From: a virus
Length of the DNA: 64,000 bases
Virus record (IMG/VR): IMGVR_UViG_2788500098_000001
Strand: one strand, 5' to 3'
The notes below the pieces were generated by a model that saw only the letters and a program-made list of their open reading frames with translations, ran no database searches and was not told the DNA's origin. A program made the translations under genes and the position numbers. Shown piece by piece: positions 15,352 through 47,578 of the stretch (position 1 is the first letter of the stretch; the number at the start of each line of letters is the position of its first letter).

Positions 15352-17229
15352 TTATCCTTGGCTTAACAGTTTAGCTAATTGTTCTGCATCCATGAGTTGG
15401 GCACCACTGCCTGCATCCTGTACAGGCACTGAATCATTTTCATGGTTACTAGTATCATTTTCGCTCGTTGATGAGTTAGCAGAAAAAGTGGTTTGTGATT
15501 CGTATAATGCTTCACGTAATAATGCTAGTATCCCATCTGAAGCCAATGCTTGTTCATAAGGAAGGCTGATTCGTTCGGTTAAATATCGCATGTATTCGCC
15601 GTCTGGAGGGTTATCAGGACCGTGATGACGTAACGTGTCTAGGTAGCGGGTTTCATTAATATCTTCAGGTAAACCGATAAGATTAGTGAGAGTGCGTCCG
15701 TAGATTTCTGTATCTGATTGTGTATTGGTTCCAGCCCAATAGGTTTTGAAGACTTGTCCACGTTCTCCTGCGAGTTCTGCTCTACCAACGCCTTTCGAGA
15801 CACCTTCATCGAGAATGTTCGCCGGAACATTAGGCATGTGTTTAGGATCATGGAAGACACCGTTGACGAGACTATCACTAGGGTTTGGTCCCATGACGAT
15901 TCGATGTCCAAATAAGTCGCGTGTGGTGGGACCGAGTCCTGATCGATCGTTTACGGTTTGTGAGGCGAGTATGAGTCGATATCCTTGTGCTCGAGCTGTG
16001 CGAAGTAATCGTAAGGTTTTAGTTTTAATATCATATTCAGCTTGCCCAGTAAAAGTTTGTTCTATGACTGCTGGCGGTGTTTTTTCTGAGTTTGGGATGC
16101 TTTTACAAACGCTGGCTGTGTCTACCAGACTACTAAACTCGTCTATTACTACTACATGTATCGGGTATTGTTGTTTAGCCCAGTCTGGAATCATGTACCA
16201 GCTTTGCCAACCATTTTCTTTCCATACTTTAGCTCGTTCACCATGCTCAATTTCTTCTACGAGTAGGTTAAGTACGCCTGCTGCCTGGACTATGGATTCA
16301 CAGCCCCAATGATGTGGAGTCACCCAAGGACGCAGCCAGTAAAAGTCAGTACTTTTGTTGTCCAAGTCAATGACACTTAAATCAACATGTTGTGCAATTA
16401 AACCTGCTAGTATCGCATTCAACGCTACTGTTTTACCTGTTCCTCCTTCGCCACCAAGAAGGAGAAAACTGCTTTCTTGCCAGTCAATGACAGCTGGCTT
16501 ATATTCTAGCCCTCCAGCCTGGGGGAGGAGCACTCCGAATGGGGTGAGTGCTTGTTGTTGAGCAGTACCTAATTGAGATAGCGGATATTCGTGTGCAGGT
16601 TGGAATGAGGCAGGTTCGCCAGGATGGATGATAATAACACCTGTTTTAGCGTTAGCTTCGAACCACCAGCCTAAATGACCTATCTGCTGGCAGGCTTCCT
16701 GTACTTTCTCATCATACTTACTGGGAGTGTATATGATAGTGTGATCCAGCACGCATTCCCATCCGCCTTCTAAGGTTTCTTTTACGCTTACCTGCCAAGG
16801 ATCAATGTTTAATGCGTTGGCAAGTAGTCCTCTTGCAGTTGATTGTGCTGGTGATAGTTTCTCAATAACTGCACGTCCTTCATAGGGGTGAAATTGTGTG
16901 AGTTTAAATCCAGGGTATTTCTGCTCATACATTGCTTGTACTTTTGCTCCAGCACTAGGTGTGCTTTGTGAGGCGGAAAGTCGAATCTCACGACGATTTC
17001 CTGACCCTTCTACCGAGCTGACACTGCGATCAACTAACACAGCTACATGCCTATCCTGGTCAATAAAATCAAGTACAGCGTCAGCAGCATCTGGATTACC
17101 GGTTTTAAATTCTTTAATTTTATGATCTAGTAAACGTCTATGACTGGCATTATTAGCTGGATCGAAAATAATATTATTTCCCTGACGGTCTTTTACTTGC
17201 GCCGGGAATACACATTCAAACTGTTTCAT
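15352..17229 (-). CDS. FtsK/SpoIIIE-family ATPase (soluble)
   Basis: GEGGTGKT Walker A, VVIDEFS Walker B, ARAQG..LILASQ; start set at MKQFE by the class B motif. Confidence 0.88.
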   Translation of the reverse strand: MKQFECVFPAQVKDRQGNNIIFDPANNASHRRLLDHKIKEFKTGNPDAADAVLDFIDQDRHVAVLVDRSVSSVEGSGNRREIRLSASQSTPSAGAKVQAMYEQKYPGFKLTQFHPYEGRAVIEKLSPAQSTARGLLANALNIDPWQVSVKETLEGGWECVLDHTIIYTPSKYDEKVQEACQQIGHLGWWFEANAKTGVIIIHPGEPASFQPAHEYPLSQLGTAQQQALTPFGVLLPQAGGLEYKPAVIDWQESSFLLLGGEGGTGKTVALNAILAGLIAQHVDLSVIDLDNKSTDFYWLRPWVTPHHWGCESIVQAAGVLNLLVEEIEHGERAKVWKENGWQSWYMIPDWAKQQYPIHVVVIDEFSSLVDTASVCKSIPNSEKTPPAVIEQTFTGQAEYDIKTKTLRLLRTARAQGYRLILASQTVNDRSGLGPTTRDLFGHRIVMGPNPSDSLVNGVFHDPKHMPNVPANILDEGVSKGVGRAELAGERGQVFKTYWAGTNTQSDTEIYGRTLTNLIGLPEDINETRYLDTLRHHGPDNPPDGEYMRYLTERISLPYEQALASDGILALLREALYESQTTFSANSSTSENDTSNHENDSVPVQDAGSGAQLMDAEQLAKLLSQG

Positions 17230-17237
17230 GGTATTTT

Positions 17238-17243
17238 CTATGC
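17238..17243 (-). promoter_or_regulatory. Class B motif (leaderless)
   Basis: GCATAG-8 nt-ATG 17229. Confidence 0.75.
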
Positions 17244-17386
17244 GACTTTGCACAATACTTCTAGTGATCTGTCTTCTTATTCGCTTATTCAAGCTCCTTT
17301 TGAGAGTACTTTAACGTTGAATAACAAGCTGACTCGCTCGTAAAACAACATATATGGGTTTTGCGCGAGTGCTCTCAACACAGACT

Positions 17387-17427
17387 ATGTCCTTCCAAGA
17401 TCAACTACACTGACTATGGAAGGACAT
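17387..17427 (-). terminator. Hairpin after tagged gene
   Basis: ATGTCCTTCCA..TGGAAGGACAT 11-bp stem just past the stop at 17446. Confidence 0.55.
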
Positions 17428-17445
17428 GTTAAGGGGAATCAAAGC

Positions 17446-46389: not shown

Positions 46390-46408
46390 ACTTCTTATAT
46401 GCGTCCAA
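46390..46408 (-). promoter_or_regulatory. Class A motif (leaderless)
   Basis: TTGGACGCATATAAGAAGT-ATG 46389. Confidence 0.85.
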
Positions 46409-46493
46409 AATCGTTAAAAGGAGGTCAAGCACCAATTGATACAACGGACGCGCTCTGTTAGCACTTGGTAAACAACAGTGGATTGTCTCTATG

Positions 46494-46499
46494 GCATAG
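46494..46499 (+). promoter_or_regulatory. Class B motif (leaderless)
   Basis: GCATAG-8 nt-ATG 46508. Confidence 0.7.
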
Positions 46500-46507
46500 G
46501 TTCAGGT

Positions 46508-47578
46508 ATGGCACTACATGCAAATAGGAACGATCGTCGTCCATGTATTGAACTGTCCGCAACTATGGTCACACTTATGCTGGTTCTGCTAGCCATCCAG
46601 CTTGGATGGCAGTATGTTGGCACTGGCCTTGATCAGGACACTGTTTCTCAGCAGCTAGAGACGAGAAGTAAACAGCCAGTAAGTAGTCAGGTAGCAGACC
46701 GTATTGCTCCTATTCGTCATGATCCTCCGCCTTTGGAATCAGCTCCCATCCCCGGTGAGCTTTTTGCATATTTACGTATACCAGTTTTTAGCACACAGTG
46801 GAGGCTACCTGTTCAAGAGGGAGTGTCTACGCAAGTTTTAGACAACCTAGGCGCAGGACATTATACAAACACAGCATTACCTGGGCAAAAAGGAAATTCA
46901 GCTTACGCTGGTCATGCTACCGTAACTGACTTAGGTACCATCAATCGACTACCAAGTCATGCGGAAATTATCGTAGAAACTAGCACTGCCTGGTATATCT
47001 ATCAAGTGGTACAAGGTCAAGTGGTCCAGGACACCAATACTAGTGTTATTTCTCCTGAAGCCATTAAAACAGAACGTGGATTAACTCTTACGACCTGCTG
47101 GCCTATGCTATCTCTCACTCCTACTCATCAACGATACGTATTACACGCAGCTTATGAAGGATGGATAGCAAAAACAGATGGTATGCCAGAAAGTTTAGCA
47201 AACACTCATCTAACATCAACCGACCAAGTTGTTCGTACCGTTCATCAAATTTCTCGACAGATACAAGTGCCGTTTACTGGCATATTAGCGATTTGTTTCT
47301 TTATTATGTGGATGATTGCAGACACTATTGCTTGGATGCTGTGGCACCACCATAAATCTTTGCCCAAACAACACTACAATTTATTCTCCTGGATATGGTG
47401 GTTGCAAGCCGGCCCTCCTGCTTGCAATGGTTGGAAACTCGTATTCAGCAGAATTATCAGAATCGGCTTGTACATACTGTTATTTACGGCAATCACATTT
47501 GCTTGTTGGCATTGGTGGTGTCCTTATGTGGCGAGCAATATAAATATGTTTTCTAGCCCTCACCCTCTCATCAAATAA
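46508..47578 (+). CDS. Sortase (class E-like) with C-terminal TMs
   Basis: AYAGH, LTLTTCWP and RYVL catalytic triad context. Confidence 0.92.
   Translation: MALHANRNDRRPCIELSATMVTLMLVLLAIQLGWQYVGTGLDQDTVSQQLETRSKQPVSSQVADRIAPIRHDPPPLESAPIPGELFAYLRIPVFSTQWRLPVQEGVSTQVLDNLGAGHYTNTALPGQKGNSAYAGHATVTDLGTINRLPSHAEIIVETSTAWYIYQVVQGQVVQDTNTSVISPEAIKTERGLTLTTCWPMLSLTPTHQRYVLHAAYEGWIAKTDGMPESLANTHLTSTDQVVRTVHQISRQIQVPFTGILAICFFIMWMIADTIAWMLWHHHKSLPKQHYNLFSWIWWLQAGPPACNGWKLVFSRIIRIGLYILLFTAITFACWHWWCPYVASNINMFSSPHPLIK

Follow-up and report, generated by a model that had tools for sequence, protein, structure and literature searches.

What signal starts the transfer and surface genes of the mobile element carried on virus record IMGVR_UViG_2788500098_000001, and what reads that signal? 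The stretch that we analysed (the window) is 64,000 nt long and corresponds to C10:18228-82227 of a host genome of 1.74 Mb with 47% GC. A first-pass annotation of its letters had noticed that the hexamer GCATAG lies 8-9 nt before the ATG of 11 genes, mostly for transfer and surface functions, and had proposed a non-housekeeping -10 element that would yield leaderless late (conjugation) transcripts and be read by a sigma factor of the element's own. The analysis below leads us to the view that GCATAG is probably one form, termed class B, of an element-specific -10-region promoter box that would give leaderless mRNAs and be read by an element-specific factor.

As the first-pass annotation had warned, the hexamer alone is near chance, with 38 copies of GCATAG in the window and 35.2 expected. 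For the spaced motif GCATAG-N8/9-ATG, 12 matches stand against an expectation of 1.42, and 12 is not reached in any of 100 dinucleotide-preserving shuffles. Eleven of these matches, whose reported coordinates proved exact, open reading frames (ORFs) of 100-1103 amino acids (aa), all within 17-47 kb; the twelfth, GCATAG-N8-ATG at 2199-2215 on the minus strand, opens 18 codons only. When every hexamer was counted at each offset from 0 to 30 before ATGs opening at least 90 codons, GCATAG at offset 8/9 took the top rank (count 11; Shine-Dalgarno (SD)-like words, 4-5). Ranking first in an unbiased scan, the motif is therefore not cherry-picked. Alignment of the 11 sites confines the information to (C)GCATAG and Y-ATG, with no conserved -35 block, in line with the lack of a common -35 element noted at first pass.

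The surroundings of the box point to leaderless transcripts. No usable SD precedes any of the 11 starts (18186 has an AGGAG merely 1 nt from its ATG), and on the gene map of the island none of the 15 starts with a box at N7-9 (11 of class B and 4 of class A, described below) has one, versus an AGGAG-type SD 4-12 nt upstream in 15 of the 23 other island genes (Fisher p = 3e-5). The island genes other than these 15 sit inside operons or have a box 30-60 nt upstream. The leadered GCATAG copies reported before the adhesin gene (2570), the gene at 21489 and two minus-strand genes (17446-18123 and 12242-12607) are all present. A pyrimidine occupies position -1 at all 11 window sites (8 C, 3 T) and at 32 of 33 box-led starts across six elements, compared with 57% of SD-led genes and 84% of TANNNT-type leaderless candidates in the host. 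Transcription start sites follow a Y(-1)/R(+1) rule, and the -1 pyrimidine at box-led starts agrees with it.

Six of the 11 starts do sit downstream of the start given in the ORF track, as the first-pass annotation had acknowledged; for two of them, those of the VirB4-like and 351-aa proteins, the moved start is backed by the N-termini of orthologs. Each of the five N9 sites has the TAG of its box in frame, as a stop three codons before the ATG, and therefore no longer ORF is possible there. In four divergent intergenic regions (18124-18185, 21421-21488, 34660-34735 and 37528-37584; 62-76 bp) two boxes stand back to back, and nothing else in them is conserved. Filled in this way, these regions leave no room for other promoters.

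GCATAG does not, as first read, stand as a code by itself, but is one flavour of a longer GGACGCATA family that was recovered independently from foreign loci: a hexamer-by-offset scan of those loci alone placed ACGCAT, GACGCA, CGCATA and GGACGC on top at staggered offsets, which assemble into GGACGCATA. Within the window, scans with one mismatch and with CGCATA brought out 11 copies of class A, TTGGACGCATAT-N4/5-AGT-R; of these, four are predicted to be leaderless, at N7/8 (32640+, 41138-, 43787+ and 46389-). CGCATAK is enriched (32 versus 16.5, with none of 100 shuffles reaching 32). We read A (GGACGCAT-NN, also (G)GACGCAT-NN) and B ((C)GCATAG), which have a common GCATA core and the same distance to the start, as two conserved classes of one predicted box. 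The split into classes is real and is conserved at orthologous genes. Class B heads genes for DNA transfer, partition and the surface: two FtsK-like genes, the VirB4-like gene, a 775-aa ATPase-like gene, ParA, sortase and a 351-aa helix-turn-helix (HTH) protein. Class A heads two candidate regulators of 290 and 370 aa, the gene for a sliding clamp, and a replication/recombination module.

The box extends well beyond this element. VirB4-like relatives with 56-58% identity are found in Bifidobacterium cuniculi, B. canis, B. animalis and B. castoris, in DNA of 61-67% GC. At the related loci L001, L003 and L004, GCATAG-N8/9-ATG/GTG opens at least 100 codons two to three times each, which none of 300 simulations for each locus reaches. 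Distant elements found through the 370-aa family (L010/L011, L046, L047 and L048; 47-69% GC) have the same type of start, for example GGACGCATGC-N7-ATG, GACGCATAC-N8-ATG, CGCATAG-N9-ATG and GGGACGCATAC-N8-ATG. Altogether the box was recovered in at least 8 related elements; one locus, L022 (genome G236), is left out of all claims made here. We also compared about 115 kb of two full elements, one on a B. castoris contig (G038) and one in a more distant Bifidobacterium (G066). The latter holds about 12 GCATAG-N9-ATG starts, among which are those of ORFs of 1093, 1382 and 1063 aa, as well as about 17 (G)GA(A/C)GCATAC-N7/8-ATG starts.

Orthologs were compared across related Bifidobacterium elements of 61-69% GC whose proteins are 27-58% identical to those of the window. 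The first-pass annotation had stated that homologues which keep the genes and lose the motif spacing would refute its reading, and the outcome went in its favour. Ten class B genes gave 23 ortholog instances, every one of them with GCATAG upstream, 15 at N8/9 and the rest leadered or at N10/N12 (Table 1). Class A with its GAC extension is likewise kept at the 290-aa gene (5 orthologs), the 370-aa gene, p84 and the clamp gene, where it is leadered in all; the clamp gene and its leadered class A box are retained in G038 and G066 at 32% identity. Class and leader status, as predicted for each gene, are thus conserved despite protein divergence to 27-58% identity. Its retention at one gene after another in distant relatives makes it most likely that the box is the element's own promoter. 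The 370- and 290-aa genes lie 70-90 kb apart in three genomes (G038:C1:232782-324187; G066:C1:1154409-1241831; G059), with box-led genes throughout, which puts the size of these elements at about 100 kb or more.

We next set the box against the baseline of the host. Host genes display the leaderless signature that is classical for actinobacteria, with TANNNT peaking 6-7 nt before ATG/GTG (71 and 65 versus a background of about 35), and GCATAK has no peak at host genes outside two clusters, the island on C10 and a region of contig C8; inside the elements TANNNT in turn has no peak at offsets 6-7. GCATAG-N8/9-ATG occurs at 53 sites genome-wide, which is close to roughly 30 by chance (estimated from 953 copies of GCATAG) plus the excess in the elements, and the sites that open long ORFs cluster in the island (11) and at C8:2.6-17 kb. 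The GCATAG box is thus private to the element and its relatives. Matches to a two-block promoter of the sigma-70 type are depleted at 15-35 kb (15000-34900; 21 versus 40.2 +/- 6.4 in shuffles) and none lies where it could serve the 11 starts, as if the island avoided promoters of the host type. Terminator-like hairpins are slightly enriched over the same 15000-34900 (27 versus 16.5 +/- 4.5).

The host itself has only two recognisable genes of the sigma-70 family, sigma-A and one small factor of the extracytoplasmic function (ECF) type. Metagenome runs of insect guts and insects, from three studies, contain DNA near-identical to 41100-43800, which suggests that the host is an insect-associated member of the Bifidobacteriaceae. 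At a host GC of 47%, the box is more than an AT-rich patch in GC-rich DNA. The second cluster (C8:1-17000, locus L014) holds a cell-wall hydrolase of the CHAP/lysozyme type led by GCATAG-N8-ATG, a divergent pair at 10113/10123, and a C5 DNA methylase led by GACGCATAT-N7-ATG; copies of the 290-, 351- and 370-aa genes and of the VirB4 gene are absent from it. Either the assembly has cut it off from the same element, of which it would be the remainder (C8 begins at a contig end), or it is served in trans.

Spacing, absence of an SD, host baseline and ortholog conservation together support the proposal that GCATAG is a non-housekeeping -10-type signal placed for leaderless transcripts of transfer genes. 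We infer the promoter role, a transcription start at the A of the ATG and the identity of the reader from sequence, and picture the mechanism as follows. The box would occupy the -10 region with no -35 partner and would set the transcription start 8-9 nt downstream. Where the ATG lies at the start point, a leaderless mRNA lacking an SD would result; where it lies 30-60 nt further on, the mRNA would have a leader and a normal SD. The core RNA polymerase of the host would probably be directed to the box by a factor encoded by the element, most likely the 290-aa sigma2-like protein, alone or together with the 370-aa and 351-aa proteins.

A specificity factor encoded by the element is likely, and these three proteins travel with the box. 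The 370-aa family is rare, with 46 representatives among 1.84 billion proteins; of the 236 genomes in the host's family, 8 have it. The 290-aa protein is found in all five other genomes tested (37-45% identity), in three of them on the same contig as the 370-aa gene; the 351-aa protein is found in five elements. Every element examined that has these families also has the box. Each of the three proteins is single-copy in the host genome, and no paralogy among them is detectable. The 290-aa protein is the best candidate, judging by its Atlas model, which has structural matches to sigma2 domains (TM by hit 0.62-0.72). Its conserved LWDPtrxTSfCgWvRR aligns with sigma region 2.3-2.4 in hhalign, not significantly; the same segment of the family resembles the FDYxKGxKFSTYATWWIRQ of sigma-70 region 2.3-2.4, and no profile method scores this as significant.

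For the 370-aa protein a confident AlphaFold model was available (pLDDT 89). In a wide VIA-align search sigma factors recurred among its matches (Z 4.2-5.4 for sigB, HrdB, SigR and CnrH). Staphylococcus aureus sigB in the open complex had Z 5.4 over 130 residues and HrdB Z 5.1; a chain of the T4 gp45-dependent complex (Z 4.3) and, for the C-terminus, sigH were matched as well. An embedding search led to phage SigF/Sigma70_r2 clusters (score 0.95). The family has nothing significant in Pfam, NCBIfam or PHROGs, its single marginal Pfam match being to Sigma70_r2 (E = 0.088, in 1 of 22 members), and profile searches of the PDB returned SAM-domain and DevR HTH noise only. The 351-aa protein, first described as tagged and sigma-like, does carry the tag, conserved at its N-terminus, and otherwise shows only a three-helix HTH at its C-terminus, with Z 4.7-6.1 to TrpR, homeodomains, KorA/B and sigF region 4.

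Several points weigh against an element-specific promoter read by an element-encoded factor. None of the three candidates is demonstrably a sigma factor: VIA Z values of 4.2-5.4, as for the 370-aa protein, are in the usual range for helical proteins, Foldseek of its model against PDB and AFDB gave no match beyond its own family, and neither the 370- nor the 290-aa family was matched by hhalign to a profile built from 27 primary sigmas (probability no higher than 2.4%). The motif-led genes on C8 have no regulator copy nearby, which fits action in trans and equally a reader encoded by the host. The box has no T at the sixth -10 position, which factors of the sigma-70 family usually need, and its recognition would therefore be unusual. 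A more elaborate two-tier scheme, in which class A boxes would switch on extremely divergent sigma-like proteins of 290 and 370 aa that every sequence model misses, these would read class B to make leaderless transfer mRNAs, and the tagged 351-aa HTH protein would be transferred to restart the programme in the recipient, strikes us as decidedly unlikely.

Of the other explanations, the one that survives best is that sigma-A holoenzyme of the host reads the box, be it as a weak and atypical -10 (CATAGN or TAGNNN) or aided by an activator or appropriator of the element bound at GGAC/GCAT beside the -10 region, so that no private sigma is involved. The geometry is near that of host leaderless promoters (8-9 versus 6-7 nt after the hexamer), and CATA is similar to positions 1-4 of some -10 elements of the sigma-70 family; the -10 boxes of Bacillus sigma-E and sigma-K begin with CATA. 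The sigma identity of the element's proteins is only putative, the plain HTH of the 351-aa protein would suit an activator, and the C8 genes bear the box with no local regulators. However, the T at position 6 of TANNNT is missing in every register, no -35 or extended -10 TG compensates for it, GCATAK-N8/9 is not enriched at host genes, and the box is invariant whereas sigma-A -10 boxes are degenerate. We regard a sigma-A reader as unlikely.

Quite improbable, in our judgement, is that the box is mainly an operator for a repressor or regulator of the element, such as the 351-aa HTH protein, and overlaps unrecognised promoters in the style of "stoperators". Such a site might well be short, asymmetric, orientation-specific and element-wide, as the box is, and an element-encoded HTH protein is co-conserved with it; a plasmid-wide motif overlapping the -10 on pMP7017 was taken by its authors for a transcription-factor site (PMC10832533). 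An operator leaves unexplained, however, the spacing to the ATG within 1 nt, the strict absence of an SD and the -1 pyrimidine, and no other conserved promoter-like signal lies nearby. The two roles are compatible, and a promoter core may double as the site of a regulator.

Very improbable is an action of the box in RNA, as a 5'-untranslated-region enhancer of translation in place of an SD, or as a site at which processing trims mRNAs down to a leaderless form: although the box sits at an SD-like place 8-9 nt before the ATG of genes with no SD, and start-associated sequences are known in actinobacteriophages from the cluster K mycobacteriophages, the anti-SD of the host 16S rRNA is canonical and a complement of GCAUAG or CGCAUA is nowhere in it, which argues against rRNA pairing and led us to reject an SD-type or start-associated translation signal, while a role in ribosome binding fails to explain leadered copies 30-60 nt before genes that have their own SD, and the divergent regions of 62-76 bp would still require promoters, of which none is seen.

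An element-specific promoter box of this kind can be compared with several known systems. Similar in layout are the leaderless promoters of sigma-A in Actinomycetota, with TANNNT 6-7 nt before the start, which have the same reliance on a -10 signal with no needed -35, the fixed short distance, the lack of an SD and the -1 pyrimidine. Here, by contrast, the signal is (C)GCATAG or GGACGCAT-NN, the hexamer ends 8-9 nt before the ATG, GCATAG+N gives no conserved T at position 6 in any register, so that the sites fall outside the TANNNT type, and the signal is confined to a mobile element and its relatives.

Some late or middle promoters of phages are read by a divergent sigma factor that the phage encodes; the late promoters of T4, for instance, consist of TATAAATA at -10 with no -35 and are read by gp55 with gp33 and the gp45 clamp. 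Both systems have one short invariant -10 element, lack a -35, are private to a mobile genome and head a functional class of genes, and the element described here also encodes a homolog of the sliding clamp. It differs in being conjugative and in its predicted leaderless transcripts; a likeness to gp55/gp33 and a role for the clamp are speculation. The same holds for a T4-like, clamp-activated late transcription: the clamp gene is conserved in the elements but itself has a leadered class A box, and nothing ties the clamp to transcription.

The consensus of bifidobacterial promoters is TTGACA-n17-TATAAT (PMC10832533). On the megaplasmid pMP7017 of Bifidobacterium breve, a 34-bp promoter-associated motif heads genes that make up roughly one quarter of the coding capacity, and chromosomes lack it (PMC10832533). 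That motif, AWAYATGYTATACTGAATATGTCCACATAAAAWA (AWAYATGY-TATACT-GAATATGTCCACATAAAAWA), holds a canonical TATACT -10 and precedes leadered genes with a ribosome-binding site (PMC10832533). The likeness lies in a replicon-wide motif that overlaps the -10 on a bifidobacterial conjugative replicon (PMC10832533). The box described here is different in sequence and architecture, and the pMP7017 motif bears no resemblance to GGACGCATA or GCATAG. It is nonetheless a precedent for replicon-wide promoter motifs in the genus.

Sigma factors with their own promoters are encoded by plasmids and by integrative and conjugative elements, as in SigN/ZpdN of the Bacillus subtilis plasmid pBS32, Orf7 of Tn916 and the TcdR family. 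In those systems the factor that sets promoter specificity comes from the mobile element itself, as is proposed here. Those factors are recognisable by sequence and use two-block (-35/-10) promoters, whereas the candidates here escape Pfam and NCBIfam and the predicted promoter has one block. Sigma-54 promoters (-24/-12; GG-N10-GC, TGGCAC-N5-TTGCW) were rejected, because the sites here have no second block; GCATAG matches in Clostridioides difficile (TTGGCATAG) are sigma-54 -24 elements followed by TTGC, and Actinomycetota are not known to have sigma-54. We found no paper describing the box in a literature search for GCATAG, GACGCATA, GGACGCAT and TATGCGTC. The proposed combination of a promoter regulon private to a mobile element with the leaderless expression of actinobacteria is well supported by the sites and their conservation.

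Table 1. Boxes, candidate readers and associated genes of the window, with the type of start at orthologs in related elements (loci or genomes named).
Feature	Position	Strand	Gene and context	Orthologs
Class B, GCATAG-N8-ATG	17243-17227	-	Start of soluble FtsK-like ATPase, 625 aa, 15352-17229	G066, GCATAG-N9-ATG; G038, leadered GCATAG with SD
Class B, GCATAG-N9-ATG	18171-18188	+	Start of p100 (18186-18488), GmrSD_C gene next; back to back with leadered copy of opposite strand (18164..18169)	G066, GCATAG-N9-ATG
Leadered class B	18164..18169	-	40 nt before ATG of tagged 225-aa gene (17446-18123), AGGAG SD	
Class B, GCATAG-N9-ATG	21435-21418	-	Start of 321-aa gene ("TcpC-like" label unverified)	G066, GCATAG-N12-ATG
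Leadered class B	21449..21454	+	34 nt before ATG 21489 (120-aa "pilin-like" gene)	
Class B, GCATAG-N8-ATG	25452-25468	+	Start of p266 (25466-26266)	G066, GCATAG-N9-ATG
Class B, GCATAG-N8-ATG	27646-27662	+	Start of p455 (27660-29027); motif in hairpin loop 27641-27660	
Class B, GCATAG-N9-ATG	30273-30290	+	Start of 775-aa gene ("VirD4-like" label unverified); divergent from class A copy 30264(-), which heads clamp gene	G038, N9-ATG; G066, N8-ATG
Class B, GCATAG-N8-ATG	34673-34657	-	Start of ParA-like ATPase (33877-34659); divergent from class A copy at 34685(+)	G066, N9; G038, N10
ACATAG variant	37564-37569	-	Heads leadered p422 gene	Leadered GCATAG with SD in all
Class B, GCATAG-N9-ATG	37570-37587	+	Start of membrane FtsK-like protein, 1103 aa; adjoins ACATAG variant	G038 and G066, both GCATAG-N9-ATG
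Class B, GCATAG-N8-ATG	41202-41218	+	Start of VirB4-like ATPase, 851 aa, AAA_10	L001 and G066, N9-ATG; L003 and G038, leadered
Class B, GCATAG-N9-ATG	45274-45257	-	Start of 351-aa tagged HTH protein (44204-45259)	L001, L003, L004/G038, G066, L046: all five GCATAG-N8/9-ATG
Class B, GCATAG-N8-ATG	46494-46510	+	Start of sortase (46508-47578)	
Leadered class B	12651..12656	-	43 nt before ATG of tagged 121-aa gene (12242-12607)	
Leadered class B	2570..2575	+	Adhesin gene; then SD AAAGGAG and in-frame ATG near 2612	
Class A, TGACGCATAT-N7-ATG	32622..32642	+	Predicted leaderless start of 290-aa sigma2-like protein	
Other class A GCATAT hexamers	1398+, 12743+, 27115+, 30264-, 34685+, 41151-, 43773+, 46402-, 47809+, 51867+			
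290-aa protein	32640..33512	+	Sigma2-like N-terminal ~130 aa; best candidate for specificity factor	
370-aa protein	45277..46389	-	Rare family, weakly sigma-like; predicted class A leaderless start	
351-aa protein	44204..45259	-	N-terminal RKPKGxPNGxGGQYD tag, C-terminal HTH	
DnaN-like sliding clamp	29136-30227	-	Leadered class A box upstream	
Tag-bearing proteins	44204-45259, 17446-18123, 12242-12607	-	In window	Tag also at L014:618-1073 (host contig C8); L001:14462-15523; L046:7192-8439

The names given to the box-led genes at first pass fared unevenly. Pfam confirmed the two FtsK/SpoIIIE-like ATPases, ParA, the AAA_10 (VirB4-like) ATPase and the sortase, and is also the source of the DnaN-like identity of the clamp. 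The labels "VirD4-like" and "TcpC-like" found no support in sequence searches of Pfam, NCBIfam or the PDB, the 775-aa protein having a weak terminase/ATPase-like match in PHROGs. Most of the remaining window proteins have no match in Pfam, NCBIfam or PHROGs.

The start of p455 has its box within a hairpin loop; the hairpin, of 6 bp, reads TGCTCG-CATAGGTT-CGAGCA, and its final base is the A of the ATG. An N4-like hairpin promoter was rejected, as among the sites only that at 27646 has a hairpin. The minus-strand copy at 2199-2215 is inside a duplicated region and, like C8:47139(-), lies upstream of paralogous adhesin genes on C10 and C8, whose products have 94.5% identity over 183 aa. Several otherwise unrelated proteins of the element bear an RKPKG(S/A)P(N/G)GxGGQYD tag directly after the start codon, which is retained in orthologs from elements of 62-67% GC; the tag may serve as a signal for secretion or transfer, or as an interaction peptide common to these proteins.

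Most proteins of this family of elements have no match in Pfam or NCBIfam. If the box is the promoter that we propose, the rule of GGACGCAT-NN or GCATAG 7-9 nt before an ATG would define transcription units, true start codons and two regulatory classes, and it would apply across a large, nearly unannotated family of conjugative elements, possibly of about 100 kb, in bifidobacteria and their relatives. In this window alone, six start codons would be corrected and three unannotated proteins flagged as likely regulators. The box would also add a one-block, T-less promoter of the -10 type to the signals to which bacterial RNA polymerase can be directed, and it would offer a direct experimental handle, through reporters or induction of the factor, for switching on conjugation in bacteria of the gut and in probiotics, whose gene transfer is poorly understood.

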